In this document: positions 7,322 through 62,769 of the stretch, piece by piece
Layout of the letters: each line of letters starts with the position of its first letter
Numbering within the stretch: the first letter of the stretch is position 1
DNA from: Centroscyllium fabricii
Lineage: Eukaryota
Direction of reading: 5' to 3'
NCBI GenBank assembly: GCA_051313645.2
Contig: JBNRSN020000003.1
Location: 370,450,001 to 370,514,000 of the forward strand
DNA length: 64,000 nt
Program-made: the position numbers and the translations under genes
Notes under the pieces: model-generated
Database searches by the model: none
Told to the model about the DNA's origin: nothing
What the model saw: the letters and a program-made list of their open reading frames with translations, nothing else

Positions 7322-7716
7322 AGAAACATAGAAGATAGGAGCAGGAGTAGGCCATTCGGCCCTTCGAGCCTGCTCCGCCATTCAATGAGATCATGGCTGA
7401 TCATCCAAACCCAGCACCCTGTCCCTGCCTTGTCCCCATATCCCTCGATCCCTATCGAGCCTGCACCGACACATCCCACCCTATCCCCGTAACCCCACAT
7501 ATTCAATCCCCCTAACACTAAGGGTCAATTTATCATGGCCAATCAACCTAACCCGCATATCTTTCGACTGTGGGAGTAAACCGGAGCACCCGGAGGAAAC
7601 CCACGCAGACACAGGGAGAATGTGCAAACTCCACACAGATAGTACCCGAGGCTGGATTTGAACCCAGGTCTCCAGTGCTGTGAGGCAACAGTGCTAACCA
7701 CTATGCCACCGTGCCG
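7322..7716 (-). mobile_element. HE1-like V-SINE (tRNA head, V-domain, CR1 tail)
   Basis: On -: GCGGCACGGTGGCATAGTGGTTAGCAC..GTGTGGAGTTTGCACATTCTCC..GGGTTTCCTCCGGGTGCTCCGGTTT; tail shared with CR1; near-identical to 56162-56553. Confidence 0.85.
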
Positions 7717-9761
7717 CTTCTTGTGGCAGCATGGCTGCGCACATCCGCATGGGGTGCGGACCAGAGTCACGAGCCATGTCATCAGCAGATATCCCTTGCC
7801 CAGTAGCCACCCTTTGGTTTGCCGTGGTGGTTGAAATACAACTGGCACAGTGGGCTGCCACAGAATAAATGCATCATGACTGCTGCCAGGATACCGGGCA
7901 TTGACCTGCATGATGCGCTGCTTATGGTCATACACCAACTGCATGTTGAGGTAGTGGAATCCCTTTCGGTTCAGGTACATGGCAGAGTTGGCATGAGGTG
8001 CACCCAAAGCAATATGCGTGCAGTCAGTGACACCATGCACCATGGGGAAGCCTGCAATCCTTGCAAACCCTCGTGTTCACTCCGCCTGCTTCTCTCTGGC
8101 AAGAGGGAATGAGATGAAACTGTCTGTCGGCATAGACAGCCTCAGTGACCACTCTTATGCAGCAGTGCAGTGCAGACTGCGAGATGTTGCTTATATCTCC
8201 AGCAGCAGCCTAGAAGGAGCCAGATGCATAAAAATTATTCGCCACGGTCGCCTTCACAGCCAGTGGCGGTGCGGTTCTTGCCCTGCTCTGAGATTGGAGT
8301 TGGGGCTGCAGCAGCTGGTAGATTTCAGTGACGACCTGCTTGGAGAGGCACAGACGTCTCGAACATTTATCCTCGCTGAGGTTCAGGTAGGAGAATTGCT
8401 CCCTAAATACCCAGGATATGGCCTCCTGCTGAGTGCCCTTTCCCCCCCTCCTCTACCTCCCTCATCTAGCAACTTGTCCTGCTCTATGAGGCCTGATCAA
8501 TGCCAAGAGGAAGGTGGTCTGGTCCCACCGATTTGTGGAAGCAACTGGTTTGTGCAGAAGCCTTGAAGCCAGCAGAAATGTACTGTGGCAGCTGCCAAAC
8601 CAGTCCTTGTCAACTTTTAAAACTTTAAACAACTATGGAAAGCACCCAAAACTTATAGAATTGCAGCAACAGCCAGCAGAAATACTCCAGCAACTAACTT
8701 GCACGTAGTTGATGATCCCTTTAAATGGCGCCAATGGTGGTGGTCCTTCATGCTGCTTAACCTTGTGTTCAGCAATACGAGGTCAACAGAGGGTGTAGGC
8801 TGGAGCGTTGAGGTCCAAGATGGCAGCACTGAAGTCAAATCAGCATTGCGGACGTTGGGTGCGCTCACGCTAACCCCTTTACCAATATGGCGTCGGGCGC
8901 ACTTAACGTAAGAAATGTGGGCACGTGCCACGGATGCCATTTTGGAAGCTTAAAAAATGGGCACTACCAAGTCCAATCTCCCCCCCCCCCCCCCCCCCCC
9001 CCCCAGTACCGATTCCAACCTCCTTGGCACCTGGAAACATTTGGCCTGCTTCCAGGTCAAGCTGACTTAACCCCAGCCTTTTAAAAGCTGACCTGACCAC
9101 TTGGAAAAAGATAACAACAGAAAATGCTAGAAATACTCAGCAGGCCACTTGCAAAAGATCCTCATTTTAATTTTCAAAAAAAAGGAAAAGTAAAGTGAAA
9201 ATTGGATTTTCAGTTGACCAACTAGACCATCAGTTGCCACAAAATTGCCTCAACAGTGAGTCTCCCCCGTCCACCCCAGTTCACAGAGGTACAGTCAGTG
9301 CTGGCATTCTCCTTCCTCCCCACTCCAAAGCACTACTCCCAAATTCTACACCCTTCCTTCTTCCCACCTTTGTTGCCATCCATTTTCCCCTTCATTGCCA
9401 TTTATGCCCTTTCTCTCCTTCATTCCCCCTTCCCTAGCCCCTCCATTTTCCACCATCTACCTCGACTTCACTGCCATCATTCCCCCCTTTCACTCTCTTT
9501 CGTTTCCCTTTTCCTGCCCCCTTCAATCCTATCATCACTTCCCCTCTTCCCTGTCCCCTCAGCATCGCTCCGACCTGATTCTGGCCCCTGCACATTGAAG
9601 ATGGAGTTCCTATGAGAATTCCCTCCGTCAGTACTCAGTGGCTGGAATCACTTCCATTAGCAGCAGGACACACTTAGCAACGAGACTGAGGGGCGAGGGA
9701 GCTGAAACAGATTATCTGGTCATATAACAGCAGTATTTGCATCTGATAGACCGAGAGGTGT

Positions 9762-15170: not shown

Positions 15171-15904
15171 CGGGCGCTGCACAGCCTTTGGGGGAGCAGT
15201 GAACGACAGACTGCAACTTCAGGATTTCCACATTAGGCTGCGCATGCGCTAAATCCTGAAGTTGCCGGTCAGTTTCAAAGGCGGAATGGCGATGAACGCT
15301 GCCAGTTCGCCGTCATCGGGACCACAAATTCCAGGCCATTATGAAAGTGCCTTGAAAAGATCAGTGGGGAAAGTTGGTGGCGGCTGTGAGACTGAAGAAC
15401 ACTGTGGATCGGTGGTCAAGATACAAAAAGAAAGCTTTTCTAACAGTTGTGGCACAGACATGGTTCATCTTTTGCGGCAAGATGTGTTGTGATTATGTGA
15501 TTCTAAAATGTTTATGTGGGCACTCTGTGGAGATCCATGCAGCAGAGATTCTGTGTCAGTGGTGTCAGAGTTATGCAGAAACTGTCCCCAAGTCCAATGG
15601 TGTATGTAATGACTCATCAAATCTTATCTTTATACCAGAAGTATGGCAGAAAGTATACCACGTGTAATTTGAACCTAATCACTCGTTTAGTTATATTTTC
15701 ATCTGGACCGTTCTAGACACACAGGCTTGCCAACCCGGGTGTAAAACTGCTGCTGCGGATTGGCTGCCTGTTTTTAGAAGCCACACGGTTTTCATTTACG
15801 TTGAATTGCCAGGGCGGCAAGTTGAAAATCTACCCCCAAAGACTGTTTATTTTTTGGTCAGCCTGTTATCTGACACAGGCAGAAACGCTTCAACAAACAC
15901 TTCG

Positions 15905-16285
15905 AAACATATAAGATTGTGAGGGGGCTTGATTGGGTCGATGCGGTGAGGATGTTTCCACTGATGGGTGAGACTAGAACACGGGGTTATAATCTTAGAA
16001 TAAGGGGCTGCCCTTTCAAAACTGAGATGAGGAGAAACTTCTTCACTCAGAGGGTAGTAAATCTATGGAATTTGCTACCTCAGCAAGCTGTGGAAGCTGC
16101 GACATTAAATAAATTTAAAACGGAGTTAGACAGTTTCCAAGCTGATGAGGGAATAAGGGGTTACGGGGAGAGGGCAGGGAAGTGAACGTGAGTCTAAGTT
16201 CGGATCAGCCATGATCCTATTGAATGGTGGAGCATGTCCGAGGGGCCGTATGGCCGACTCCTGCTCCTACTTCTTATGTTATGTA
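15905..16285 (+). mobile_element. CR1 3' fragment with short-type 3' UTR
   Basis: ORF 15919-16185 is the CR1 ORF2 end; UTR lacks the 120-nt module. Confidence 0.9.
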
Positions 16286-16564
16286 ACTTGTCTAGGAGTC
16301 TCCAAATTAATCTACGCAGAAATCCACATAAGTCGTGTTTCTGTTTGGCTGATTAGGAGGGCGCACGCGCTCCACAGAGGAACACGCCTCGCTTAGCTGA
16401 GTCCCGGCAATTTAAGCGCAGTTTTGCCAGTGCGTAGACACCTCCAAGTGTTCCTCACAGAGATACTGCTAGAGTTTAATCCGCTCAAACCATGCAACTT
16501 AATAGGATAGAGCAGCCTACTGTTACCTGGTCAAAACAACCATATCAACAGGACAAAAAGGATA

Positions 16565-18479: not shown

Positions 18480-20000
18480 TGGCCCAGAAATTCCGGTGGC
18501 CCAGAAATTCCGGTCGCCCCGGGTGAGTCCACGCTGGGTACTCACCCGTAGGCCCATCCGAAGTGCCAGTTTCATGCATGCGCGCAAAACCGGCACTTCC
18601 GATCGATCCCCTGACAGAAGGGGTCAGGGGTCGGTACGCGTGTGCGTGTGCGGCAGCGCGTGGGCAATGCACTTCCGATTTTCTTTACAGGTCTGTGTGT
18701 GGGTAAGTATGGAGAAAGATACGGCTGCTTTTTTCATGCGCAAAGACCCCTTTTCAGAAGGTAAGTGGTGAATTAATTCAATTTAAAAAAAAAAATTCCA
18801 CAGATTTTTAAGTTTTAAATACTTTAAAGAAAGGTAAGTTTATTTTTAGCCCTGTAATGCCCTAGTTTCACTGGAGGCTAAGTATGCCAAGTATCCCAAG
18901 AATCGTCCAGAATTGAAATCTTGGCGATTCTTGGTGATTCTGCATGAAATGCGAAAAATACTTGGTTGAATCTTGGCGATTCTTGGTGAATTCTTGGCGA
19001 TTCTGGACAAGGTTACGAATCTATCACGAATTATTTTACGAATGAGGTACGAATCACTCACGAATCCACCACGAATTGCAAGAATTAATTAAGAATCCAC
19101 TACGAACTCCACGAATTAGTTACGAATTCTACGAATTAGCTACGAATTATCTACGAATGGCATTCGTAGTGCATTCGTAGTGCATTCGTGGACATTCGTG
19201 GACAATCGTGGTGCATTCGTGGTGCATTCGTGGTGCATTCTTGATTTTGAAAAAATGAAGAATGCCCAAGAATAGTCAAGAATGCACCACGAATCCACTA
19301 CGAATCAGTTACGAACGGTAAGAAAGGGTCACGAACGGTAAGAATGGGTCACGAATTGTTTACGAATCTATCACGAATTGAAAATTCGTGAACCCTCCTA
19401 CGAATTTTTTTGACAAACAAAAACTTTCCTTAAAAGTAAAAGAACTCCCGCGAACTACCGCGAACTCTACGATTGCGCTACGAATCCACTACGAATCTAC
19501 TACGAATCCACTACGAATTGCAAGAATGACCCACGAATCGGCCAAATTTAAAAATCGGCACGATTCGGGAATTCGTAGCCTCCAGTGAAACTAGGGCATA
19601 AAAAAACTTTCATTATTTTTTTCAAATTTTTTAATTTTTGTTTAAAACAGCTAATTTATGTCATTGATAGTTATTTTAAAAAATATGTTTTTTAAAAAAA
19701 TTATTTGAAAATTTACTGAGGTTTTGGGGCTTGTAGTATTCATAAATTTGACAGCTCTTCCTGTCAAACTTATGAATGGAGCATTCTGTGCTCCAATTGG
19801 CTCCCCGTGGCCCACGTGATCCCGCGCAATATCTCGCACTAACTGCGCCGCTCGGATACGGGAGCGCGGCGTGCCGGCACTTCAGGAAGGCCCCGCATCG
19901 GAATGCCATGCGGTGGCACAGCTCAGCGGCCGGCGCAGTAGGTAAGTGTAGGTTGGAGGCTTACACTCGCGGGAAGCCTGCAACCTGAATTTCTGGGCCA
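18480..20000 (-). mobile_element. Family X TIR element copy 2 (duplicated terminal 17-mer; nested Harbinger MITE)
   Basis: TGGCCCAGAAATTCCGG twice at 18480-18513; AATTTCTGGGCCA at 19988-20000; TTAT on both flanks. Confidence 0.8.
18858..19598. mobile_element. PIF/Harbinger MITE filled with ACGAAT/AAGAAT motif arrays
   Basis: Perfect 23-bp TIR TGCCCTAGTTTCACTGGAGGCTA; TSD TAA (18855-57, 19599-601). Confidence 0.9.
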
Positions 20001-26090: not shown

Positions 26091-27616
26091 TTTAATTATT
26101 AACAAAAAACAAATTTTCACTTTTGGTGGGGGTGGAAAACTGGCAAAACGCATCGGCCGCTCATTTATTCGCCTTGCACGATTGCCCTTTAAGGCCATAT
26201 GACGGGCTGCCCATCAGCTTCTGCCAGTTTCCTGCCCTCACACAAAGTGAGAATTAATCCTTCACCGCGCTGCGGTTTACACTTGATAAATGGTAACCTG
26301 CAGGAGGTACCGACTCAACATGCACGAAGGAAAAGACCCGGATTGCGAGTCTCCTTCAGTGAGCCATTCCAAACTAGGGCAAAACATTTGCACTGAACGA
26401 TTTAAAATTTGACTTTGGAAGTGCAACACTGCCTCCTGGTGACCAAAAATTGTACTACCTGATTAAATATTCCAGATTTTATGCATCAGAAGTAAAAGTG
26501 ATTTTGCCCCATATAGTACTCTCGAGTGAGAGTGGAAATGTTGTTGCATTCCTTCTTTTCAGGCAGATTCAAGTGACCTGCAGCCCTGGAGTCTGCGACC
26601 TTCTAATCAGAACAGAAACCTGCTTTAGCTTCGCCCCTCTGGAATTCTCTTTGTAACTTCTCCTCCCAGCTTTAACAGGCTCCTTCAAAGCCTATCTTTG
26701 CAACTGAGCTTTCAGTCTGCCCTCTGACCTCTTCTGCTACTTGGTGTTTGTCTATTCTCTGCTGTGTGGAGGCCTTAAAGACTCCAGAAAAATGACACTT
26801 TTTTGTCGCTCGAGACCGCTTCTTGTTCATAATGAGATGAACGGTGAAGACCCAAAACCATGGCGCAAGATGCCTTTAAGAAGACAAGAGTCAAGGAGAA
26901 CACACAGTAAATTCATAAGTGGAGCTTAGGTGACCCCAAGATTGGGCTTTGGAAGCTTTTAAGTTTGAGCAGCAAGGAAAGACTAAGGGAGGGAAGGAGT
27001 TACATGGTTGTGGTATCGTGGGAAAGAATACATGCACTTTTATTTAGTTTAGGGAACATTTTAATTAGGTAGATTCCAATTTTTGTTTTAATTGTTCATG
27101 GGATGTAAAGAGACTGGCAAAGCCACATTTATTGCCCTGTGGGAGGCTACGGTCTCCCGCGTAAAGAAAGTCAACACAGCGAGCTACAAGAAATAGGTCT
27201 TTACTCCAACTCCCACAATACAGTACTGAATTCGTAAAGCCCGCGAACCTGTGATGACTCACGGGTTGGTCACCTGCTGGAACCTGATTGGCTTTCCTTC
27301 TCTCAGGAGCAGGCAAGTCTGAACATGCCTTATTCCGCTCAGCTTGCAACTGCCTTGCTTGGGGAGGGGAATACAGCAGTTAAAAGGGGATTATACAGGT
27401 TTATCTCCGTACACACAGTGCTTCCCCAATGTGGCAACGCCACATCCCATCCTTCGTTGCCCTGAGAAAGTTAACCACCGCAGTCCTTGTAGTGATGGTG
27501 CTCCTACAATTGTGTTCGATAGGGAATTGCCGGATACTGCCCCAGTGAAGATGAATGGATGCCGATATTTGTCCAAATCGGGGTGCTGTGTGTGGACTGG
27601 GAGGAAATCACAGTGA

Positions 27617-29245
27617 CCGGGCAGGGGATGGCGATGGGGAAATGCGAGTACTCGTCAATGACGTTTAAAAAGTACACGTTTCGGTTGGACGAGGGGAGGG
27701 GCCCTTTAAAATCGACGCTGAGTCGCTCAAAGGGGCGGGTGGCCTTGATCAGGTGTGTCTGGTCCGGCCGAAAGAAGTGCGGCTTGCACTCTGCACAGAC
27801 TCGGCAGTTCTTGGTCATGGTCTTGACCTCCTCAATGGAGTAGGGGAGGTTGTGGGACTTAATGAAATGGACCAACCTGCTGACTCCCGGGTGGCAGAGG
27901 TCGTTGTGCAGGGTCTGGAGACGGTCCACTTGTGCGCTGGCACATGTACCGCGGGACAGGGCATCTGGGGGTTCGTTGAATTTCCCGGGCCGGTACAAGA
28001 TATCATAATTGAAAGCAGAGAGCTCAATTCTCCACCTCAATATCTTGTCATTCTTGATTTTACCCCACTCTTGGTTGTTGAACATGAACGCGTCTGAGCG
28101 TTGGTCAGTCAGCAGGGTAAATTGTTTGCCGGCCAGGTAGTGCTTCCAGTGTCGCACTGCTTCAACAATGGCCTGGGCCTCCTTCTCAACGGAAGAGTGT
28201 CGGGTCTCGGGGCCCTGGAGGGTGCGCGAGAAGAAGGCCACGGGTCTGCCCGCCTGGTTAAGGGTGGCGGCCAGGGCAAAGTCGGACGCATCGTTCTCTA
28301 CCTGGAACGGAATGGACTCGTCCACAGCATGCATCGTGGCCTTTGCAATATCCTGTTTTATGCCGCAGAAGGCCGTGCGGGCCTCTGCCGACAGGGGAAA
28401 GGAGGTTGATTTGAGTAGTGGGCGGGCTTTGTCTGCGTAATTGGGGACCCACTGGGCATAATAAGAAAAGAACCCCAGGCACCTTTTCAGGGCCTTGAGG
28501 GAGTGGGGGAAGGGGAGCTCCAGGAGGGGGTGCATGCGGTCTGGGTCGGGACCGATGACCCCATTCTCCACAACACTGCCGAGGATGGCGAGGCGGGTTG
28601 TCCTGAACACACATTTTTCCGTGTTATAGGTCAGGTTCAGATTTTTGGCGGTGTGGAGAAATTTCTGGAGGTTGGTGTCGTGGTCCTGCTGGTCGTGGCC
28701 GCAGATGGTCACATTATCAAGATACGGAAAGGTGGCCCGCAGTCTGTACTGATCAACCATTCGGTCCATCTCCCTTTGGAAGACCGAGACCCCGTTGGTG
28801 ACACCAAACGGAACCCTGAGGAAGTGATAGAGGTGGCCGTCTCCCTCGAAAGCAGTATAGTGGCGGTCCTCTGAGCGGATTGGGACCTGGTGGTACGCAG
28901 ACTTCAGATCGATGGTCGAGAAGACCCGATACTGGGCGATCTAGTTCACCATATCCGCTATGCGGGGGAGGGGATACGCATCTAGCTGCGTAAACCGGTT
29001 AATGGTCTGACTGTAGTCCACGACCATCCAGTGCTTGGCTCCGGTCTTCACAACTACTACCTGTGCCCTCCAGGGGCTATTACTGGCCTCGATGAACCCT
29101 TCCTTCAGGAGCCACTTCACCTCAGACTTGATGAAGTCCCTGTCCCCGGTACTGTGGCGCCTACCTTTGGTGGCGACGGGCTTGCAGTCCGGGGTGAGGT
29201 TGGCGAAGAGTGAGGGAGGGGCGACCTTAAGGGTCAAGAGACCGC
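27617..29245 (-). mobile_element. Ty3/Gypsy pol fragment (RT-RNaseH-integrase N-half), inverted relative to the rest of the element
   Basis: SPWRAQVVVV..VDYSQTIN..YPLPRI, YLDN, DASDFALAA, EKEAQA, HPG..CRVC, DFKGP. Confidence 0.9.
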
Positions 29246-32880: not shown

Positions 32881-33711
32881 GTGGATGCCACCTGAATTTA
32901 ATAGTACATTCATCAGCCATTCATCTTTAACAGACCGAGCAGGAGGAGTTTTATTTGACAAATGGCAGGTGTGAGGCTTTAGCAGAGAATAAGTGGCCTC
33001 TAGTTTGAGAGCAAGACCATCCTTCACTGTATAACAATGCTCCTGTGTATCTTTACTGAACAAACATGTCACTAAAACATGAGCAAGATTGGCTGTTTTA
33101 TGGCAAAACATCACGGATGACTTATAGGTGAGGTGATTAACAAATTGATCATCGTTAACCTAACAACCTCGGCTCACCCATTCTCATTGAATTGATCCTG
33201 GCAAGATGAAGCCAAGTGAAGCCTCCTGTGGTGTCGAAGGAGGCAGCCGCTCCCTTGGGGGCCTTTAAAAAAATAAAAAAATAAAAATTTCAGAAGAATT
33301 CGGATTCATATACTTAATTTCAACCCATTTCTGGCAGTTTTTGAATTTAAATTTTTTATATTAGTGACAGAACCAAGCTGAAGAAGTTGCTGAGGACGAT
33401 GATGAGGGAACCGTATTCTTATTCGTACAGTTACAGTCCTAGTCGCCCGTCGGATTATTGCTGTGGAACTGATTCAACTGGAAGGCGCTGTGCTATGTGT
33501 TCCCACCGCCAATGTTCCCCCTCATTTTTTTTCTTTTGAGGATGCGGTCCCCTTAACGGGCTGCACGGCCCATTCAAAATTTCACACTTGCGCAAAATGT
33601 CCCGTTGAAAAGCCGGTGATCGGCCTGCGCGGGTCATCCAGACAGCTGTGCGACCGCACAACTTACTGGAAACATTGCCCCTCATCCCTTTGCTCCCAGT
33701 CCAGCAACTCA

Positions 33712-34300
33712 TAAGAACATACGAAACAATAAGAACATAAGAAATAGGAGCAGGAGTCGGCCAATCGGCCCCTCGAGCCTGCTCCGCCATTCAACAAGAT
33801 CATGGCTGATCTGGTCCTAACCTCAAATCTACTTTCACTCTCCATCCCACCCGAACCCATGTGATCTCCTGGGTAGGCGAAAAACCAGATTAAAAACCCA
33901 GTGGCCAATTTGGGAGAAAAAATCTGGGCAATTCCTCTCCGACCCATCTAGGCGATCGAAAACTGGTCCAGGAGATCACATGGCCGATCTGAACCTAGCC
34001 TCACGTCCACTTACCTGCCCGCTCACCATAACCCCTAATTCCCTTTCCTTCCAGGGAATAGGAGCAGGAGTCGGCCATTTAGCCCCTCGAGCCTGCTCCG
34101 CTATTTAATGAGATCATGGCTGATCTGATCTTGGGCTCAGCTTCCTTTCCCTGCCCGCTCCCCATAACCCTTCACTCCCTTATTGTTCAAAAATCTGTCT
34201 ATCTCCAAAAGACCCAGCCTCCACAGCTCTCTGGGGCAGGGAATTCCACAGATTTACACCCCTCCTGAGAGAAGACATTCCTGCTCATCTCAGTTTTAAA
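33712..34300 (-). mobile_element. Two adjacent CR1 3' ends; the first carries the structured UTR module (33857-33983)
   Basis: CR1 tail TAGGAGCAGGAGTCGGCC at ~33746 and ~34059. Confidence 0.85.
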
Positions 34301-34666: not shown

Positions 34667-37600
34667 TGTAGCGGACCGCCGGCTGGCGAATCCGCCTCGG
34701 GAGTACTGCGGGGCATAGCCCCGCCCACCGGGTGACGCAATGACGTCACCATGTCTCTCGGCGTGATGAGGTCAGAGGCGAGCGGGCAGTTTAAAAGAGC
34801 CTGCTCCTCGTGGCTCACTCTCTTTCTCATGTAGTACTGTTCAATAAAGTAGTGTTAACTGTCTATCTCCGGCTCCTGCATGGTCCTTGGGTCCTGTAAG
34901 CGCTACAGTGGTGACCCCGTCTTGGAACGTCTTCCAAGAAGAAAACAGCAGCTCAACAGGACTTAAGCCAAGCAGCCTCAGGACAATTAAAAAAAAACAC
35001 AACCAGCAACAATGTCTACCAGAAACCAGCCTTCCCGTCAGCAAGGACATGGCCAGAACCCCGGGCACCGACTAACTTTACCGGAGTTCTGGGAGCAACG
35101 CCCGGCAGCGTGGTTTATGTGCATTGAGACCAGCTGCCGCACCCATGGCATCCAGGGGGACGACCGCTACGACCTAGTCTTCTCGGCCCTACTGCAGTCG
35201 ACGATCGACCGGATGTGGTCGAAGCTACAGCGCGCGCCCGCAACAGGCAGGTACGACTTCATTAAGGCCGCGCTACTTAAAAAATTCACCCCCACCCAGT
35301 TCGAGCGCGACTGCCAACTCCTCAACCTCCCCGAACTCGGGGACGCAGACCCATCTGACCTTTGGGGCCAGATGCAAGCGCTGACCACGGACCCCGCCTC
35401 CCTGTTCCACGCCATTTTCCTCCTTAAGCTGCCCCCCTCCATCAACCTTCAGCAACCGGAGCGGGGACAAGCTAGCCGAGGAAGCCGACAGGCTCATGGC
35501 GGCCGAGCGCACCCGCTCCGCCACGTGCGACCTCACCGCCGCGGCAGTCGAGCCCGCCCACTCGCCCCCCAGGTCCAAGCCCACGCCTGAACCCAGGCCC
35601 CCGCGCCCTCCCAAACAACCGCGTGCCGCGAGCACCGGTTGGCGCTACTACCACGCGCGGTTCGGCACCAAAGCGCACCGCTGCGTCCTGCCCTGCACGT
35701 TCAAGCCACAGCCCAGCCCAGCCCCCACCATGTCCGTAGGCCACACCGGAGCCCTGCTCTACGTCACGGACAGGGGCACGGGTCTCCGGTTTCTCTGCGA
35801 CACAGGCGCACAACACAGCATCGTGCCAGCCTCCCCCGCAGAAGCCAAAAAAGGTACCCGGGGCCCGCCCCTCGCGGCGGCCAATGGCTCCGACATTAAA
35901 ACATACGGGACCCGCAGGCTAACCATCCAGCTTGCTGGCCACACGTATGAATGGGAGTTCGTCACAGCCCAGGTCACGTCACCCCTCCTCGGGGCAGACT
36001 TCCTGTGCGCACACGGCCTCCTGGTCGACATGACCCGGCGCCGCCTGGTCGACATCAAAAATATGTCGCCCATCCCATGCTCCACGGGGCCGGCACTCCT
36101 GGCCCACGCGGCGGCACGATGCCGCGCCCGGAACTCCGACGCGTACAGTGCGCTCCTCTCAGAGTTCCCAGCACTGACCAACCCCACCTTTACCGCCCGA
36201 ACGGCCAAACACGGGGTGGAACATTTCATTCTCAACACCGGCCCTCCTGTACACGCCCACGCCCGCAGGCTGGACCTGGCCAAGCTGGAGATTGCGCGCG
36301 CTGAGTTCGGCACCATGGAGCAACTCGGCATAATCTGCCGCTCCAGCAGCCCCTGGGCCTCTCCCCTCCACATCGCCCCCAAGCCGGGCGGGGGTTGGCG
36401 CCCCTGCGGAGACTACCGCTGCCTCAATAACGCCACTACCCCGGATAGGTACCCCGTACCCCACATCCAGGATTTCTCCGCCAGACTAGCGGGCTGCACG
36501 GTCTTCTCCAAGATCGACCTGGTACGTGGCTACCACCAGGTCCCGGTGCACCCGGCGGATGTCCCTAAGACAGCCGTGATAACCCCCTTTGGCCTGTTCG
36601 AGTTCCTGAGGATGCCCTTTGGGCTCAAAAACGCGGCCCAGGCCTTCCAGCGCCTAATGGACTCAGTCCTACGGGACTTGCAGTTCATCTTCGTCTACCT
36701 AGACGACATCCTCATGGCCAGCACCTCCCCCCCAGGAGCACCTCCTGCATCTCAGGACCCTGTTCCAGCGCCTGGTCGAACACGGCCTTATATTAAGCCC
36801 CTCCAAATGCAAATTCGGCCTGGAAATCATAGACTTCCTGGGCCACCGCATTTCCAAAACCGGGGCCATACCCCTGCCCTCCAAAGTGCAGGCAATCCAG
36901 GAATTCCCCCGCCCGCACACCGTCAAGGGCCTGCAGGAGTTCCTCGGGATGGTTAATTTTTATAACCGCTTCATCCCAGGAGCAGCCGCTCTCATGGCTC
37001 CCCTATACCAGGCCACACGCGGGCAGTCCGGCAAAGCCGCTGTCGAGTGGACGGCCGACGCCGCCACCGCGTTCACCGCAACCAAGACCGCCCTAGCCAA
37101 CGCCACCCTCCTAGCCCATCCCAGGCCCAACGCCAGAGTGGCCCTCACCACTGACACCTCCGACCACGCTGTCGGGGCCGTTTTCGAACAGTGGGCGGAC
37201 AACTCTTGGCAGCCCCTGGCCTTTTTCATCCGGCACCTGCGGCCACCGGAGGTCAAGTACAGCGCCTTCGACAGGGAGCTCCTCGCTCTCTACCTCGCTG
37301 TGCGCCATTTTCGTTTCCTCCTGGAGGGCCGTCATTTCACAGCTTTCGTGGATCATAAGCCGCTGACGTTTGCGATGGCTAAGATCTCCGAACCCTGGTC
37401 AGCCAGGCAGCAGCGCCAGCTTGCAGCCGTGTCGGAATTCACTACCGACATCCAGCACATCTCCGGCCGCGACAACGTGGTCGCTGACTGCCTGTCACGT
37501 CCCACCATCAACGCCGCCCAAATGGCGGTGGATTACGCCAAGCTGGCAGCAGACCAGCGGGCGGACCCAGACCTGCGCGCCCCGGCAGAAAACCTCCCGG

Positions 37601-39098
37601 GCCTACGCTTGGCCAACATCCCCCACGGCCCCGCGGCCACCGTAGTGTGCTGCGACGTCTCATTGCAGCAGCCCAGGCCCGTCGTCCCCCACGCATGGAG
37701 GCGGCGCATCTTTGAGACCCTCCATGGCCTGTCCCACCCCGGCACCCGCGCCTCCATCAAGCTCATTTCGGCCCGTTTTGTGTGGCGCGGCCTTCGTAAA
37801 GACGTCCGCGCCTGGACCAATGCCTGCATCGCTTGCCAGCGGGCCAAAGTGCATAAGCACGTCAAAGCCCCGCTGGAAACGTTTACCGTACCAGCCAGGC
37901 GCTTCAACCACGTCCACGTCGATCTCGTTGGACCGCTGCCGCCGTCCCGGGGCCACACCCATTTAATGACCATGGTGGATCGCAACACTCGCTGGCCAGA
38001 AGCAGTCCCTCTGGCCGCAACCAACACCACGGACTTAGCCAGGGCGTTCATCGCAACTTGGGTCGCCCGTTTCGGCGTGCCCACCGACATCACGTCGGAC
38101 AGAGGTCCCCAATTCACGTCCGCACTATGGGCGGCCATCGCCCGCAACCTCGGGGTGACCCTGCACAAAACCACCGCGTACCACCCACAGGCGAAGGGGC
38201 TGTGCGAAAGGTTCCACCGCTCCATGAAAGCCTCCCTGCGGGCCAGCCTGGAAGACGCATCGTGGACAGACCGCCTACCGTGGGTACTGCTCGGACTCCG
38301 CTCGGTGGCCAAAGAGGACTTGCATGCCTCAGCAGCGGAACTCGTCTACGGCCAGACATTAAGAGTGCCGGGCGAGTTTCTCGCCGAATCAAACGCCACC
38401 TGGTCGGCCGACCAGTTCCTCAAAGACTTTGCCAACCCGGCACGAGCTTTCACCCCCTTACCGGTGACCCGGCACGGGGAGCCGGTGGCACATGTACCGG
38501 ACAACATCCAGCAAGCCAAGTACGTGTTCGTCCACCATGACGCTCATCGCACACCTCTACGGCCACCCTACGACGGCCCTTATAGAGTGCTTCGGGTGGG
38601 ACCTAAAGCTTTCGATCTACAGCTGGGCAACCGAACGGAAACGGTATCAATCGACCGGCTGAAACCGCTGCACATGATAGCGGGCGACGCGACGGTCCCC
38701 GCCCAACCACCTCAACGCGGACGCCCTCCCGCACCACCACCCGCCCACACTCCACCGCAGCACCAGGAGCAATGCACGACCCGTGCCAGCCGCACCATAA
38801 GGCCACCACGACGCCTCGTGTAGACTTTTTCCCTCGGACGGATTCTGGGGGGAGCTGTGTAGCGGACCGCCGGCTGGCGAATCCGCCTCGGGAGTACTGC
38901 GGGGCATAGCCCCGCCCACCGGGTGACGCGATGACGTCACCATGTCTCTCGGCGTGATGAGGTCAGAGGCGAGCGGGCAATTTAAAAGAGCCTGCTCCTC
39001 GTGGCTCACTCTCTTTCTCATGTAGTACTGTTCAATAAAGTGATGTTAACTGTCTCTCTCCGGCTCCTGCGTGGTCCTTGTGTCCTGTAAGCGCTACA
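34667..39098 (+). mobile_element. Complete Ty3/Gypsy provirus, CsRn1-like clade (gag-pro-RT-RH-IN with two frameshifts)
   Basis: 241-bp LTRs 34667-34907 and 38858-39098 (TG..CA, about 7 mismatches by eye); TSD TTAC; PBS TGGTGACCCCG complementary to the tRNA-Trp 3' end; PPT; gag YHARFG..C..PC; protease DTGA; YLDD; HHCC, DDE and GPY integrase. Confidence 0.95.
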
Positions 39099-40439: not shown

Positions 40440-43400
40440 GACCCAGTAACCAGGGGGGGAGGTTTCAAGAGAGAAAATAACGACAGGGGAGAAGGAAATA
40501 GAGCAGGGTTTCAGTGGGGAATCTGAAAATCGAAGTGTGTAGGAGGACACAGAATGTATGAAGATAAAGGTATAGTCGTAAAAGGGGCAAAAACAGGAAT
40601 AAAGTGTAGTAAAACACATGTGAAAGTGCTTTATTTGAATGCACGTAGTATTCGTAATAAGATAGATGAATTGACGGTACAATTAAGCACGTATAGGTAT
40701 GATATTGTGGCCATTACAGAAACATGGCTGCAAGGTGATCAGGACTGGGAGTTAAACATAGAGGGTTACTTGACCATCAGAAAAGACAGACAGGAAAGAA
40801 AAGGAGGTGGGGTGGCCTTGTTAATAAAGGATGGAATAACTTAAAATGCAGCCAAGAGAGTTTTTTGAAGCAATATGTTGGGTCACCTACAAGGGGGGGG
40901 GGCGGTACTAGACCTAATACTTGGGAACGAAGACGGGCAGATAGAGGAGGTAACAGTGGGGGAGCACTTCGGGGATAGCGACCACAATTCAGTTAGTTTC
41001 AAGATTGTAATGGAGAAGGATAAAAATGGACCAGGGGTAAAAGTACTAAACTGGGGGAAGGCGGATTTCATTAAAATTAGGCGCGATGTAGCCGCAGTAG
41101 ACTGGGGCCATCTTCTCAGAGGAAGATCTGCATCAGAGCAGTGGGAGGCCTTCAGAGGGAAGGTCGGGAAGATACAGGAGGAACATGTTCCTGCTAAAAT
41201 CAAGGGCGGGGGAGGTAAACAAAGGGAATCTTGGATGTCTAGGGATATATGTAAATTAATGAAGAAAAAAAGGGGGGCCTTCAATGAATATAAACGGCTA
41301 AAAACCGAGGAGGCGCTAGGGGAGTATAAGAAGTATAGGGGGGAATTAAAGAAGGAGATAAGAAAAGCCAAGAGGGGTCATGAGATTGCAATGGCCGGCA
41401 AAATCAAGGATAACCCTAAGGCATTTTCCAGTTATATAAAAAACAAAAGGATCACGAGGGAAAGAGTGGGGCCCATTAAGGACGATAGCGGAAAGCTGTG
41501 CGTTGAGCCCGAGGCGGTGGGGGAGGTACTAAACGAATTTTTCTCTTCAGTATTCACAAGAGAGAGGGACGGAACCGACATCGTAATCGGACAGAGTGTA
41601 GGGGGGGTAATTGAGGATATTACCATTACAAGGGAAGAAGTACTAGAAATCTTGGGAAGCTTAAAGGTAGACAAATCACCAGGGCCGGACGCGATGTTCC
41701 CCAGGCTGCTGTTCGAGGCCAGGGAAGAGCTTGCGGGCCCCCTGTCTCAAATTTTCAGGTCCTCTCTCGCGTCAGGGGATGTACCCGAGGACTGGAGAAC
41801 GGCTAATGTAGTACCCCTGTTTAAAAAGGGTAGTAGGGACAAACCGGGTAACTATAGGCCAATCAGTCTTACATCTGTAGTGGGGAAAGTAATGGAAAAA
41901 ATTCTGAGGGACAAAATCAGTCTGCATTTGGAAAAGCAGGGTCTGATAAGGGATAGTCAACATGGCTTCGTCAAAGGTAAGTCGTGCCTAACTAATCTCT
42001 TGGAATTTTTTGAAGAGGTAACAAAGAGGGTGGATGAAGGGAGTACGGTTGACGTGGTGTATATGGACTTCAGCAAGGCTTTTGATAAAGTCCCACATAG
42101 GAGACTAATAACAAAGGTTAAAGCACATGGGATACAGGGCAACTTGGCACAGTGGATTCAAAATTGGCTGGGGGATAGGAGACAAAGGGTAATGGTAGAG
42201 GGCTGCTTCTGTGACTGGAAACCAGTAACCAGCGGTGTCCCCCAAGGATCGGTTTTGGGACCCTTACTGTTTCTAGTATACATCAATGATTTGGACATGG
42301 GAGTAGTGGGTACGATCAGCAAATTTGCTGATGATACGAAAATTGGAAGGGTGGTAAATAACGATGAAGATAGTAAAAGGCTCCAGGAAGATATAAATGT
42401 AATGGTTAGTTGGGCAGAAAAATGGCAAATGGAGTTCAACCCAGAGAAATGCGAGGTCATACAATTCGGCAGACCAAATGGGGTAAGGGAATATACCATG
42501 AACAAAAAAACGTTAGGTAGGACCGAGGAACAGAGGGACCTTGGGGTACAGGTGCACAGCTCCCTGAAGGTTGCTGGACACGTAAACAAGGTGGTTAAGA
42601 AGGCATACGGAATTCTGGCCTTTATTAACCAGGGCATAGTATACAAAAGTAGGGAGGTAATGTTAAACTTGTATAACACGCTGGTGAGACCTCAGCTGGA
42701 GTACTGTGTGCAGTTCTGGTCACCGCACTTCAGGAAGGATGTGGTTGCCCTGGAGAGGGTGCAGAGAAGGTTTACCAGGATGATACCTGGTCTGGGGGAC
42801 TTATGCTACGAGGAAAGGCTGGACAGGCTGGGGTTGTTTGCCTTGGAGAAGAGAAGATTGAGGGGTGACATGATCGAGGTATACAGGATCATGAGAGGAC
42901 ACGATAGGGTGGATAAAGGGGCATTGTTTCCCTTGGTGGGAGAGTCAAGTACTAGGGGACATAGATTCAAGATTAGGGGGGGGAGGTTTAGGGGGGAGGT
43001 AAGGAGAAATTTCTTTACTCAGAGGGTGGTGGAAGTGTGGAACTCCCTGCCTGTAAGGGTGGTGGAGGCAGAAACCATCGCAACATTTAAAAAATATTTG
43101 GACCAGCACATGAAGGACCGTAACATACAGGGTTATGGGCCAGGTGCGGGCAAATGGGGTTAGTATAGTGAGGAGTTTCCTGGGCCGGTGCGGACTGGAT
43201 GGGCCGAATGGCCTTTATCCGCACTGTAAAGTTTCTATGATTCTATGATTCTATGAACTGCAATAGAAAGGAAGGATATTGGGTCAAAGGATCAGGATAG
43301 TGAAACAGCTTGGGTACAGATAGAGAATAATAAGGGGAAAAAAACACTAGTGGGTGTAATCTATAGACCTCCAAATAGCTGTGACTCTGTTGGTCAAAAC

Positions 43401-46104
43401 ATAAATCAGCAAATAGTTGAAGCATGTAATAAGGGAACAGCTGTAATCATGGGGGACTTTAACTTTCATATTAACTGGGCAAATCAAACTGGGCAGGGTA
43501 GACTAGAGGAAGAGTTTATAGAGTGTATTAGGGATGGGTTCTTAGAACAGTATGTAACTGAACCGACTAGGGGGGAGGCAATCTTGGATCTGGTCCTGTG
43601 TAATGAAGCAGGATTAATTAAAAATGTCATAGTTAGGGACCCTCTTGGAACGAGTGACCATAATATGGTTGAATTCCATATTCAATTAGAGGGGGAGCAA
43701 ATTGAAACTCAAACCAGGGTACTTAGTCTAAACAAGGGAGATTATGAAGGTATGAGAACAGAATTGATTAAAGTAGATTGGGATAACAGACTAAAGAATA
43801 AGACGGTACATGAGCAGTGGTGTACTTTTAAGGAGTTAGTGTACAACTTTCAAGAAAAATACATTCCACTGAAGAAAAAAAGGGGTAAAGGAAAGGACAG
43901 CCAACCATGGCTAAGTAAAGTAATAAAGGATAGTATTCAGCTAAAGGCAAGGGCATATAAGGTAGCCAGATACAGTGGGATGACAGAAGATTGGGAAGCA
44001 TTTAAAAGTCAGCAAAAAATAACAAAGAGATTAATTAAGAAGGGGAAAATAGATTATGAAAGTAAATTAGCGAAAAATATAAAAACTGATAGCAAGAGTT
44101 TTTATAGTTATATAAAAAGAAAAAGGGTGGCTAAGGTGAATGTTGGTCCATTGGAGGATGAGACTGGGAATTTGTTGGTGGGGAACATGGAGATGGCAAA
44201 AGCATTAAACAAATATTTTGTATCAGTCTTTACTGTAGAAGACATTAAAAATATTCCAACGCTGGATAAACAGGGGGCTATAGTAATGGAGGAGCTAAGC
44301 ACTATTAAGATCACTAAGGAGATGGTATTAGGTAAATTAATGGGACTTAAGGCGGATAAATCCCCTGGGCCTGATGGATTACATCCTAGGGTCTTGAGAG
44401 AAATAGTGGTGGGGATTGTAGATGCATTGGTGATAATTTTCCAAAACTCCCTGGAGTCAGGAAGGGTCCCGGTGGATTGGAAAATGGCTAATGTAACACC
44501 TATATTTAAAAAGGGAAGTAGACAGAAGGCTGGTAACTATAGACCGGTTAGTCTAACATCTGTGGTGGGTAAAATGTTGGAGACCATTATTAAAGAAACA
44601 CTGACGGGGCATTTGGATAAACATAACTTAATCGGACAGAGTCAGCATGGTTTTACGAAGGGGAAGACATGTTTGAATAATTTGCTCGAATTCTTTGAGG
44701 AAGTAACATCTCTGGTGGATAAAGGGGAACTGGTGGATGTGGTATACTTGGACTTCCAAAAGGCTTTTGACAAGGTGCCACATAAGAGACTATTGCTTAA
44801 GATAAAAAATCACGGGATTGGGGGTAATATATTAGCATGGGTAGAAGATTGGCTTTCAAACAGGAAGCAGAGAGTTGGGATAAATGGTTCATACTCGGGA
44901 TGGCAATCGGTGACTAGTGGTGTTCCGCAGGGGTCGGTGCTGGGACCCCAGCTGTTTACAATCTATATAAATGATTTGGAGGAGGGGACTAAGTGTAATA
45001 TATCAAAGTTCGCAGATGACACAAAAATGGGAGGAAAAGCAGGGAGTGAGGAGGACAGAAAAAGCCAGCAAAAGGATATAGATAAGCTAGGTGAGTGGGC
45101 AGCGATTTGGCAGATGAAATTTAATACTGGTAAATGTGAAGTTATACATTTTGGGAAAAAAAATCATAGAGCAAGTTATTTTCTAGATGGGGAGGAGCTG
45201 CGTGGTAATACAACGCAAAGGGACTTGGGGGTACTATTGCATGAATCACAAAAAGTTAGTATGCAGGTGCAGCAAGTGATTAGGAAGGCCAATGGATAGG
45301 GGGATAGAGTATAAAAGCAGGGAGGTTTTGCTGCAGTTGTATACAGTATTGGTGAGACCGCATTTGGAATACTGTGTGCAGTTTTGGTGTCCATACTTAA
45401 GAAAGGATGTACTTGCTCTGGAGGCAGTGCAGAGAAGGTTTACACGGTTAATTCCAGGGATGAGGGGGTTGACATATGAGGAAAGGTTAAGTAGGTTGGG
45501 ACTTTACTCATTAGAGTTCAGAAGAATGAGAGGCGATCTTATTGAAACGTATAAGATCGTGAGGGGCCTTGATCGGGTGGATGCGCTAAAGATGTTTCCA
45601 ATGATCGGGGAGACCAGAACTTGGGGGCATAGTCTTAGAATAAGGGGGGGCTCTTTTAAAACTGAGATGAGGAGAAACTTCTTCACTCAGAGGGTGGTTA
45701 ATCTATGGAATTCACTGCCTCAGGGAGCTGTGGAAGCGGGAACATTAAATAAATTTAAAACGGAAATAGACTTTTTTAGCAGACAAGGGAATTAGGGGTT
45801 ACGGGGAGCGGGCAGGGAAGTGGACCTGAGCTATTGATAGTATAGTAAGACCTGAGTGATCTCCTGGACAAGTTTCGATCGCCTAGATTGGGGTCGGAGA
45901 GGAATTTCCTGGATTTTTTTCCCAAATTGGTCCTGGGTTTTTATCCGGTTTTTCGCCTCTCCCAGGAGATCACATGGTTTTTTGGGTGGGATGAAGGGTG
46001 ATAGTGGGAAGAAGGTTAGGGTAGGATCAGCCATGATCTTATTGAATGGCGGAGAGGGCTCGAGGGGCCGGTTGGCCTACTCCTGCTCCTATTTCTTATG
46101 TATG
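40440..46104 (+). mobile_element. CR1 LINE with nearly complete ORF2 (host), interrupted by a second CR1; long-type 3' UTR
   Basis: ORF 40554-40841 (YLNARSI..ITETWL) joins in frame to 43260-45296 when the insert is removed; RT motifs; small deletion at ~45296. Confidence 0.95.
40842..43255 (+). mobile_element. Young 5'-truncated CR1 (subfamily B) nested in the host CR1
   Basis: 762-aa open frame with RT; (TTCTATGA)n tail; AACT duplicated at 40838-41 and 43256-59. Confidence 0.95.
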
Positions 46105-46127
46105 TAACCCTGAGTGGGACTGGAAAC

Positions 46128-46569
46128 ATTGACCATTCTGCAAACCATGGCCATGTATTGACCATTCTGCAGACCATGGCCATGCATTGACCATTATATA
46201 GCCCATGGCCATGTATTGACCATTCTGCAGACCATGGCCATGTATTGACCATTCTGCAGACCATGGGCATGTATTGACCATTCTGTAGATCATAGCCATG
46301 TATTGACCATTCTGCAGACCATGGCCATGTATTGACCATTCTGCAGACCATGGCCATGTATTGACCATTCTGCAGACCATGGCCATGCATTGACCATTCT
46401 GCAGACCATGGCCATGTATTGACCATTCTGCAGACCATGGCCATGTATTGACCATTCTGCAGACCATGGCCATGTATTGACCATTCTGCAGACCATGGCC
46501 ATGTATTGACCATTCTGCAGACCATGGCCATGTATTGACCATTCTGCAGACCATGGCTATGTATTGACC
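46128..46569. repeat. Minisatellite, 29-bp unit x ~15
   Basis: Unit ATTGACCATTCTGCAGACCATGGCCATGT, head-to-tail, no spacers. Confidence 0.95.
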
Positions 46570-55927: not shown

Positions 55928-56161
55928 TACCTTTCATGGGGGTTGACCCCCACTGCCCTATATCTATACTTGTGTGGTATCGGGATCCAGGAGCATAACA
56001 ATGCCTCCGTGTCTTACACACACCTGCTTCAATCTCTCCCAGGTCTGACTTGGTCAACACAAGGGGAGGCAAAGTTTGGTTCGAATTGTAGACTACAATA
56101 GGTAAAGCATAACCGCACAAAGAGTTTGATGAGATTTGCTTTACAAGCAATACAAAAAATA

Positions 56162-56553
56162 AAGAACATAGAAACATAGGAGCAGGAGTAGGCCATTCGG
56201 CCCTTCGAGCCTGCTCCGCCATTCAATGAGATCATGGCTGATCATCCAAACCCAGTACCCTGTCCCTGCCTTGTCCCCACATCCCTTGATCCCTGTCGAG
56301 CCTGCACCGACACCCTATCCCCGTAACCCCACATATTTAATCCCCCTAACACTAAGGGTCAATTTATCATGGCCAATCAACCCAACCCGCACATCTTTGG
56401 ACTGTGGGAGGAAACCGGAGCACCCGGAGGAAACCCACGCAGACACGGGGAGAATGTGCAAACTCCACACAGATAGTACCCGAGGCTGGATTTGAACCCG
56501 GGTCTCCAGTGCTGTAAGGCAACAGTGCTAACCACTATGCCACCGTGCCGCCC
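56162..56553 (-). mobile_element. HE1-like V-SINE, full length
   Basis: Near-identical to 7322-7716. Confidence 0.9.
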
Positions 56554-57314
56554 TATCTACTGAAGTGGGTGAAGAATACGCAAGTTCTTCACCCACTTCA
56601 GTAGATTGACTTGCTCAGCTTATGAGACCACTCTCTCTGCGCCCTCTCCAACTGCCTGGGATAGATGTGCTGTCTGCTGCTTCCTGATTGACATTTTTGG
56701 TGTCTGTGTTCTCATTTTTAAAAGCCTTTCTCACAGAGCAATAGAAATCTTTCTGAATAATCAAATGTGGCTAACGAATTGATTGGTCTTGAAGTGAAAC
56801 AACTTTCCATCTTACATATTAAATATAATTTGTCTGCCTATGGATTCATAAGCACTGTGGGGCTGACTTGAGAATTTAACCCCTTTTAGGTAAGGTTTTG
56901 CTCAAAACATTTTGACATAGCTCATATCCAAGGAAAAAATTGCCAAAGAATCCCAAACTCTGACACACCATTTGCTGTATTTTCTCATCATTAGAACAAG
57001 ATTACACTTGTAATTCGGGAACATGTACTTGGAATAACATTCTGATAAAATATGTTTTCACCTCTTTTATCTAGTTTGAGTCTGTGGAGTTTGGCCAGCA
57101 ATAGATATAATCTATGGAACCTGCTCATTCTAGGGTCCGACTACAGATCCATTTGTTCTCTATTTGGACACCTGTGGTCCTGAAGTTGTTTGCGATGCTC
57201 AGAGATCGCCCTTGGTTATAAACTAAAACATTCTGTTTTAACTGGTGGCTTTAAAACAAATCTGAATTTTGTCAGAATTTTTCCCAGAACTCATTTACTG
57301 AAATAAGTACTCCA

Positions 57315-61360: not shown

Positions 61361-62500
61361 AGAAAGGAACTTTTTCCCTTAGTAGAGGGGTCAATAACCA
61401 GGGGGCATAGTTTCAAGGTAAGGGGCAGGAGGTTTAGTGGGGATCTAAGGAAGAACTTTTTCACCCAGAGGGTGTTTGGAAAATGGAACTCACTGCCTGA
61501 AAGGGTGGTAGAGGCAGGAACCCTCACAACATTCAAGAAGCATTTGGATGAGCACTTGAGATGCCATAGCATAAAAGGCTACGGACCAAGTGCAGAAAAA
61601 TGGGATTAGAATAGACAGGGCTTGATGGCTGGCGTGGACACGATGGGCCGAAGGGCCTCTTTCTGTGCTGTATTACTCTATGACTCTAAGAGCAGGGAAG
61701 ATCTCCCTGGTGTCCTGGCCAATATCTATCCCTCAATCAACATCACTAAAACAGATTGTCTGATCATTATCTTGTTGCAGTTTGTGGGACCGGACTACAC
61801 AAATTGACGACCGCATTTCCTACATTACAACAGCAACTACAATTCAAAAGTACTTAATTGGCAGTAAAGGGGTTTGGGACGTCACGAGGATGTGAAAGGT
61901 GCTATATACATAAGAACATAAGAAATAGGAGCAGGAGTAGGCCAATCGGCCCCTCGAGCCTGCTCTGCCACCCAACAAGATCATGGCTGATCTGATCCTA
62001 ACCTCAAATCTATTTTCACTCTCCATCCCCCCCAAACCCATGTGATCACCCGGGAGAGGCGAAAAAACAGATAAAAAACTCAGTGGCCAATTTGGGAGAA
62101 AAAATCTGGGAAATTCCTCTCCGACCCATCTAGACGATCGAAAACTGGTCCAGGAGATCACATGGCCGAGCTGAACCTAGCCTCATGTCCACTTACCTGC
62201 CCACTCACCATAACCCCTAATTCCCTTTATTTCCAGGAAACTGTCTATCTCTGTTTTAAATTTATTCAATGTAGTAGCTTCCACAGCTCTCTGGGGCAGC
62301 AAATTCCACAGCCCCACCACCCTCTGAGTGAAGAAGTTTCTCCTCATCTCAGTTTTGAAATGGCAGCCCCTTATTTTAAGATTATGCCCCCTAGTCCTAG
62401 TTTCACCCACCATTGGGAACATCATCACCGCATCCACCCGATCAAGCCCTCTCACAATCTTATATGTTTCAATAAGATCGCCTCTCATTCTTCTGAACTA
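61361..62500. mobile_element. CR1 3' fragment (+, to ~61687), Deu-SINE tail (+) and nested CR1 3' fragment (-, 61909-62488) carrying the UTR module
   Basis: ORFs 61352-61609 and 62183-62488; SINE tail GCTATATA|TATAAATGCA split by the insertion. Confidence 0.85.
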
Positions 62501-62769
62501 TAAATGCAACAGATACAGACATGAGGTGAGGAAATCCCCCAGTAGTGGAGCGCTAAGTTCCAAAGTCACCTTGCATGTCCAATCCATGCTACACTTAGCA
62601 CATCATTTCTCAAAGTGCTCATAATGCATCCCAAAATGTTATTTTCTGGAAGAAATCCAACTTAAATGATACAGTTTAAAAAAAATCAATGCATTGACAT
62701 TGGATATTAAAAAGTTATACCCTCCTTTGATAAAATAGCCTTGGATTCCACGCTCTGCGTTTCTCTTAT

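Follow-up and report, generated by a model that had tools for sequence, protein, structure and literature searches.

The window analysed here, a stretch of 64,000 nucleotides, is repeat-rich animal DNA. A 5'-truncated LINE spans positions 43257-46105 and carries a cassette between its ORF2 and its 3' tail. This LINE and the related elements of the window are composed as follows.

43257..45795, plus strand: 5'-truncated CR1 ORF2 of copy A, with an endonuclease remnant and reverse transcriptase (Pfam, protein similarity)
45856..45973, plus strand: cassette copy A, a predicted three-way junction (sequence, similarity search, folding)
45974..46024, plus strand: purine-rich linker within the optional module, poorly conserved (34/51 between copies A and C)
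46025..46105, plus strand: conserved 3' tail, common to cassette-less LINEs and two SINEs (similarity search)
33857..33983, minus strand: cassette copy B, in a CR1 3'-end fragment of ~330 nt (about 33710-34045)
62038..62165, minus strand: cassette copy C, in a CR1 3'-end fragment of ~600 nt (about 61909-62503)
15904..16290, plus strand: copy D, the closest cassette-less CR1 relative, with a single copy of a 25-nt repeat
about 7320-7720, minus strand: SINE 1, with the LINE tail, cassette-less
about 56160-56555, minus strand: SINE 2, with the LINE tail, cassette-less

The ORF2 of copy A occupies two frames (43257-45299 and 45280-45795, stop codon at 45793-45795) and matched the Pfam families RVT_1 (E 3.8e-31) and Exo_endo_phos_2 (E 1.1e-10). 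Its best named relatives among the best 120 matches are found in rays and catshark (55-63% identity), ahead of elements from birds and turtles. The 3' tail ends in short TTCTTATG-type repeats without poly(A). Judged by the Pfam domains, the named protein matches and the repeat tail, the host element can be classified as a CR1-clade LINE. The two SINEs are presumably HE1-type V-SINEs, and the names HER1 and HE1 are our assumption for the LINE and SINE copies of the window. A HER1 LINE/HE1 V-SINE pair of sharks and rays is tabulated (PMC3747384). From the ray and catshark protein matches and from the tail that the LINE has in common with two SINEs, the DNA likely comes from a cartilaginous fish. 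The HER1/HE1 and UnaL2/ZfL2 tails (PMC3747384, PMC4176376, PMC1636434) are similar to the tail found here in that a structured 3' tail with short terminal repeats is common to a LINE and a SINE, whereas the cassette of the window is optional and lies upstream of the shared tail.

Several other repeats surround these elements. Three CR1 fragments (at 43257, at 34045 on the minus strand and at 61353) abut with their start on the repeat tail of a further CR1; such head-to-tail junctions suggest that insertion or template jumping took place at CR1 tails. The stretch 40869-43256 (plus strand) belongs to a second CR1 family, which has a tail of another type and an ORF2 open over 764 codons; the 3' UTR of this element has one 9-nt and one 14-nt word in common with the flank and the cassette of copy A, probably by chance. 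Just 3' of copy A, at 46128-46569, a 29-bp unit is repeated 15.2 times (94% matches), and a cluster of short tandem arrays of 10-31 bp, including a palindromic stretch (19228-19292), is found at 18961-19521. ORFs with protease, reverse transcriptase, RNase H and integrase in gypsy-like order are located at 35385-38823 (plus strand) and 27504-28940 (minus strand), with no match to the cassette covariance model near them in the window. The sole Rfam match in the window at gathering score is a tRNA within repeat DNA (526-596, plus strand, 54.1 bits), which we take to be a tRNA-Gly pseudogene.

An earlier note on this DNA had described the cassette as a block of approximately 120 nt that is present in three CR1 3' ends and lacking from others. 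Both observations were reproduced. All three copies are oriented in CR1 sense, and copies B and C are 88.5% and 86.9% identical to copy A (similarity search, window); the fragment harboring copy B is fused to the tail of a cassette-less CR1. The shared 3' tail gave ten matches in the window, three with the cassette and seven without (1365, 7402, 10904, 16202, 34125, 49782 and 56243), two of the latter being SINEs and not LINEs. A covariance model built from the three copies detected no fourth cassette in the window, the next non-self match reaching 22.8 bits versus 132-153 bits. The Rfam search (ribozymes, snoRNA, SECIS and others) gave no match at gathering score over the cassette (best E 7.5). 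An identity as H/ACA RNA, SECIS element or ribozyme was dropped, since Rfam gives no support for it. Cassette patterns matched once in viral contigs, seven times in bacterial genomes and not at all in metagenomes, and none of the matches fits the covariance model (best score 15.1 bits over these eight loci plus L009 and L013, with L010-L012 left out). The shared-tail pattern had no match in viral contigs or in genome contigs. Searches with the C-terminal part of ORF2 yielded four, one and no loci, of which only L013 includes a 3' UTR, short and cassette-less. This CR1 3' end (L013, 546-1145, short UTR and repeat tail) lies on a 1.3-kb contig of a bacterial assembly and is likely vertebrate contamination. 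The cassette is real, conserved and optional, and it is probably structured; its sequence itself is probably already contained in repeat libraries, within a CR1 entry.

The length of about 120 nt holds for the cassette, but the optional unit is larger (~180-190 nt) and consists of cassette plus linker. In copies B and C, the cassette and a purine-rich linker of ~50 nt are located between 25-nt direct repeats.

33979..34003, minus strand: left 25-nt direct repeat of copy B (right repeat 33801-33825, spacing 178)
62161..62185, minus strand: left 25-nt direct repeat of copy C (right repeat 61982-62006, spacing 179)

The repeats of a pair are 21/25 alike in both B and C (counted by eye), which confirms the duplicated flanks reported for the minus-strand cassettes, and in copy D one repeat copy leads straight into the tail. 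The deviating flanks of copy A were also seen: its left flank looks replaced and its closing stem is shorter. In an unrooted tree of nine ORF2-end fragments, copies A, C and D (83-85% alike) are split from the other ends with a support of 94, while the order within this group has a support of 69; over this ORF2 end, copy D is 84-85% identical to A and C. With this grouping, a single gain in the A/C/D ancestor and a later loss via the direct repeats fits as well as exchange, so that the modular gain and exchange among CR1 lineages put forward in the note are not favored by it. The module was likely lost by deletion between its two 25-nt repeats, and it is not needed for mobility.

Two explanations without a function of the RNA have to be considered at this point. 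According to the first, the cassette is a passenger, a fold-back insert from template switching that has recently spread between lineages, its identity reflecting recent exchange and not selection. The direct-repeat flanks would fit this origin, as would the closing stem, which resembles the tail start and its inverse, the replaced left flank of copy A and the lack of the cassette in its closest relative D; evidence bearing on its conservation is given below. The second, insertion of a MITE (a short DNA element with inverted repeats) into a CR1 master, would agree with the perfect 16-bp terminal inverted repeat of copy B. However, there is no target duplication at the arms and no free-standing copy in the window, and the loose ends listed beside the cassette in other organisms are CR1 flanks, making this origin highly improbable.

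Folding z-scores for cassettes A, B and C were -4.7, -5.8 and -4.1, with none of 200 shuffles each scoring as well. The RNAalifold consensus is a three-way junction formed by the closing stem P1, the side hairpin P2 and an arm (P3, loop, P4, loop, P5), and the same consensus was recovered from a 354-column alignment that included the flanks. The predicted parts are, in the numbering of copy A:

45856..45867, plus strand: P1 closing stem, 5' arm, pairing with 45962-45973; 12 bp in A, 16 bp in the B/C type
45876..45896, plus strand: P2 side hairpin, 45876-45880 with 45892-45896, with a variable loop
45897..45902, plus strand: P3 lower stem, 5' arm, pairing with 45956-45961 in the consensus fold
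45903..45908, plus strand: lower internal loop, 5' strand AAUUUC, facing UUUUUCG at 45949-45955; invariant between A and C
45909..45913, plus strand: P4 middle stem, 5' arm, pairing with 45944-45948; includes the compensatory pair 45911/45946
45914..45943, plus strand: upper ENE-like domain, with U7 at 45914-45920, P5 at 45921-45924/45934-45937, U5 at 45938-45942 and a bulged A at 45943

The helices named in the note are thus returned by the consensus, but not every stem is intact in every copy: copy B disrupts the GAGAGG/CCUCUC stem and copy C has four private stem changes. The private changes in both probably arose after insertion. The five pairs of P2 never vary, while variants in its loop are found at 45885, 45888 and 45889 in other organisms. 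As to the U-rich internal loop, the claim stands for the upper loop; the arm contains two such loops and not one. A pseudoknot between the junction strand and the terminal loop was rejected, since the required bases differ between the lineages (45870, 45931).

Most of the folding signal is supplied by the closing stem. The arm alone (65-68 nt) folds weakly (z -2.45, -0.66 and -1.87 for A, B and C), with the antisense strand doing no worse. The short helices flanking the upper loop belong to the consensus fold, whereas single-sequence folds of the whole UTR prefer rivals: P3-P5 do not exceed a probability of 0.08 in any copy, and the minimum is lower than the ENE fold by 2.8 (A), 2.4 (B) and 4.7 (C) kcal/mol under a model that counts no triple-helix energy. 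For a transcript ended at the cassette, the arm probability is 0.97 (A), 0.01 (B) and 0.73 (C). Competing folds predicted to be as stable or more so in the full UTR might point to a fold switch, in which the pyrimidine-rich strands pair with each other's flanks or with nearby purine-rich strands and thereby gate the 3' tail. The competing fold differs from copy to copy, however, while the arm fold is the consensus, and the linker is poorly conserved, with a complementarity to the arm no better than that of shuffles (p 0.13, 0.94 and 0.83); moreover, the compensatory pair sits in P4 of the arm fold. A fold switch is accordingly a poor candidate, which we judge quite unlikely. The linker was also rejected as a third strand or switch partner, as its complementarity to the arm is not above shuffles and a conserved A-run is lacking.

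Copies A and C are identical at 106/118 cassette positions, including all 26 positions of the U-loops. Codon positions 1 and 2 of ORF2 (169/190) and the 3' tail (61/68) were compared in the same way, as were third positions (70/95), fourfold sites (19/29), the linker (34/51) and the UTR preceding the cassette (40/60). Since the left flank of copy A looks replaced, codon sites are the fairer yardstick; the cassette is more conserved than fourfold sites (p = 0.0026) and third positions (p = 0.0032) and not distinguishable from positions 1 and 2 (p = 0.85). Differences between the lineages, counted as columns in which B equals C but is unlike A, are found in 3/64 stem columns (all of them pair-keeping), in 1/26 U-loop columns (an inserted C, one more three-way column being left out), in 6/28 columns of other loops and in 15/51 linker columns (stems versus other loops, p = 0.02). 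For these counts the P2 3' arm was set one base off, which leaves them unchanged because both bases are invariant. The non-U loops also differ from the rest of the cassette (6/28 versus 4/90, p = 0.011; 5/90 with the three-way column). This clustering argues against the passenger explanation, as do the linker, which belongs to the same module and has diverged like neutral DNA, and the presence of both cassette lineages in four organisms. The comparison covers two lineages, so these counts weaken a recent exchange of the core rather than exclude it, and we regard the passenger explanation as improbable. As far as sequence comparison goes, conservation above neutral sites is stronger evidence than covariation.

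Covariation concerns a single pair, 45911/45946, which is G-C in copy A and A-U in copies B and C and is one of 37 pairs. It is not significant, as 170 of 500 shuffles of the three sequences reach one such pair, and the compensatory change is one evolutionary event. A search matched 22 sequencing runs from 11 studies, 20 of which hold the stretch or part of it, and in the four runs compared both forms recur. In these four, 45911 is A in 30, 67, 23 and 65% of the depth and 45946 is T in 60, 78, 39 and 53%, percentages that are unphased and in which part of the T could be due to CpG decay. In run X10, two contigs cover 45911 with depths of 18 and 9.01, and the sums imply A and T on the first and G and C on the second, so that the A-U and G-C pairs both likely occur as haplotypes in a second organism. 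The covariation claimed in the note was therefore upheld as far as the pair itself is concerned but amounts to one event. Similarly, the reading of the middle stem of copy A as CUGGAU/AUCCGG is right with respect to the compensatory pair, while the U at 45910 is nearly private to this copy (C in 95-100% of the depth in all four runs); T at 45931 is nearly private to copy A as well.

The cassette is covered in all four runs examined, which represent four organisms. Run X15, whose RNA nature is a guess, does not count here as evidence of transcription. Variants listed for these organisms are located in the junction strand, the P2 loop, the terminal loop, at 45910 and at the compensatory pair. 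The cassette-less join of 45830 to 46024 is likewise present in contigs of all four runs, with 5-9 letters in between in the examples listed. In run X1, the summed depth was 1.2-3.9 million for the cassette and 12-15 million for the shared tail; depth is not copy number, and the run data are contigs showing neither strand nor RNA ends, but the lower cassette depth is in line with a minority subfamily. One loose end in run X10 carries an A-rich linker with AATAAA, which is absent from the window copies.

The arm shares several features with elements for nuclear expression (ENEs) on paper. Uridine runs are present on both strands of the upper loop (U7/U5 in A, U6CU/U5-6 in B and C), and the predicted order of the domain is stem, U-run, 4-bp stem, loop, U5, bulged A and stem, the stem below the bulged A starting with A-U followed by G-C. 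U facing U cannot come from simple inverted duplication. A four-U ENE descriptor, written after the cassette had been seen, matched twice in the window, at the upper loops of A and B, and missed C; the background was 0.11 matches on average over 100 shuffled windows and 8/5000 shuffled cassettes. The lower loop, with only three U on its 5' strand, fails this descriptor. KSHV PAN RNA is known to be polyadenylated.

The PAN ENE consists of U5 opposite U5, followed by AU and a G-C stem (PMC10855403, Table S1), and G-C pairs beside the ENE loop were reported to be essential (PMC12501189). The upper 3' strand of copy A reads GG, U5, AU, CC as in PAN, and both cassette loops have U5 followed by a bulge of 1-2 nt, with C-G pairs closing above. 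In contrast to PAN, the 5' strands of the cassette are longer (U7 or U6CU) or U-poor, and the pairs under the upper loop begin with A-U instead of a G-C run. Double ENEs (dENEs) are described from plant and fungal transposons, the type being the rice hAT element TWIFB1 (PMC7583470, PMC13541005); their upper domain resembles PAN and gives most of the stabilisation (PMC7583470), and an adenosine triad and a pocket are further dENE features (PMC13541005). In TWIFB1, the upper domain combines a 4-bp top stem with U5 and one bulged A, and there is a middle stem of ~10 bp and a second loop of U4/U5 (PMC10855403). The cassette is similar in its two internal loops split by a short helix, the 4 bp of its top stem, its upper 3' strand with U5 and one bulged A (sequences compared by eye) and its site in the 3' UTR of an intronless mobile-element RNA. 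It differs in its host, a vertebrate non-LTR element, in its middle stem (5-6 bp versus about 10), in the lower 5' strand (AAUUUC versus U4), in CG instead of AA after the lower U5, in the three-way junction with a closing stem of 12-16 bp and in the lack of poly(A) in inserted copies. An interrupted lower stem of the TWIFB1 type was not seen, P3 being a plain 6-bp stem; alternatively, AA-UU pairing in the lower loop would make CG a bulge in the lower stem. With respect to the triad, no A-rich bulge of the TWIFB1 kind follows the lower U5, one bulged A and the AA of the 5' strand being present. Of the other known systems, the Arabidopsis LTR retrotransposon Evade (PMC12501189) is similar in its four U-tracts as internal loops, in their position between ORF and end and in a proposed increase in mobility, but is of the LTR type, bears a poly(A) tail and has a tested function. 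The ENE+A elements of MALAT1 and MEN-beta are vertebrate, with a U-rich loop near the 3' end; the cassette lacks a downstream genomic A-rich tract and a tRNA-like structure or processing signal, and the assignment to this class was rejected. The cassette may be said to resemble an ENE, while membership in the dENE class is tentative; triad and pocket were not identified. The proposal of an ENE-like optional 3' UTR module, made in the earlier note, is supported by the upper-loop layout, the second loop and the conservation of stems and U-loops, more strongly than argued there, but an encoded poly(A) or A-rich third strand is missing, which is the main difficulty and was not raised in the note.

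In the 3' UTRs of the three window copies, no poly(A), no AATAAA or ATTAAA and no A5 run was found. The cassette lies about 130 nt from the element end, and the nearest downstream polyadenylation signal follows after 542 nt (A) and 793 nt (B), with none in ~2 kb for C. A poly(A)-binding function would hence depend on read-through and host polyadenylation. UnaL2 is reverse-transcribed from its terminal repeat onwards (PMC1636434), and CR1-clade elements are of the stringent type (PMC4176376), so that inserted copies would bear no sign of a poly(A) further downstream. The best reading, for and against which we see the case as evenly balanced, is that the cassette is a double-ENE-like clamp that would hold the poly(A) tails of CR1 read-through transcripts. 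CR1 transcripts would run past the element end and receive poly(A) at a downstream host signal. The tail would loop back into the upper loop, forming about five U.A-U triples, and might enter the lower loop more weakly with about three, and the two stacked U-rich loops would clamp it in a triple helix and slow decay. Reverse transcription would still start at the internal terminal repeats, which would explain why inserted copies have no poly(A). A precedent for ENE-driven mobility is an LTR element (PMC12501189). The recruitment of reverse transcriptase, one of the roles suggested in the note, is unlikely to be the core job, because LINEs and SINEs that have this tail but no cassette spread as well.

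A selected RNA structure could also act without poly(A): ORF1p/ORF2p or a U-binding host protein might bind it and promote particle assembly, export or translation, the U-loops serving as protein sites or flexible U-U hinges. The conservation data fit this equally well, no third strand is present in cis, and the junction, the side hairpin and the closing stem of 12-16 bp are as conserved as the loops and are absent from the PAN and TWIFB1 sequences; the UnaL2 tail, moreover, needs a U-U-containing hinge (PMC1636434). On the other hand, the ENE-like layout of U5 and bulged A is left unexplained, and the cassette-less ends are the majority (7/10), so recognition by the reverse transcriptase does not need the cassette. 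A protein site appears to us a less likely alternative. Returning to the clamp, the full proposal is that a vertebrate non-LTR element whose copies never carry poly(A) harbors a working two-loop ENE on a three-way junction, which captures read-through poly(A), protects the RNA and presents the internal tail to the reverse transcriptase, being an optional module that selection has maintained in several cartilaginous fishes. This proposal is tentative, and we would place it somewhat below an even chance.

Transposon ENEs have been placed in plant, fungal and slime-mould elements and in stickleback retroviruses (PMC7583470) and mostly occur in LTR elements (PMC12501189); the available text of the latter article does not mention LINE, non-LTR, fish or vertebrate. 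No literature on an ENE or triple helix in CR1, non-LTR elements, sharks or fish was found by title or abstract start, a search with most subscription papers outside its scope. A supplementary list of about 200 elements reportedly accompanies the work of Tycowski in 2016 and may bear on novelty. The cassette would appear to be an ENE-like element of a kind already known in a setting, CR1, that seems new.

Without poly(A) binding, the cassette would remain a conserved RNA structure in a LINE, with no Rfam family. Its thousands of copies and the natural forms with and without it lend themselves to comparison. A short vertebrate element with a double loop could act as an RNA stabiliser. A working ENE in CR1, if true, would extend the class to stringent LINEs and would mean that CR1 RNA is polyadenylated even though inserted copies lack poly(A); the 3' end of CR1 RNA thereby becomes directly testable.
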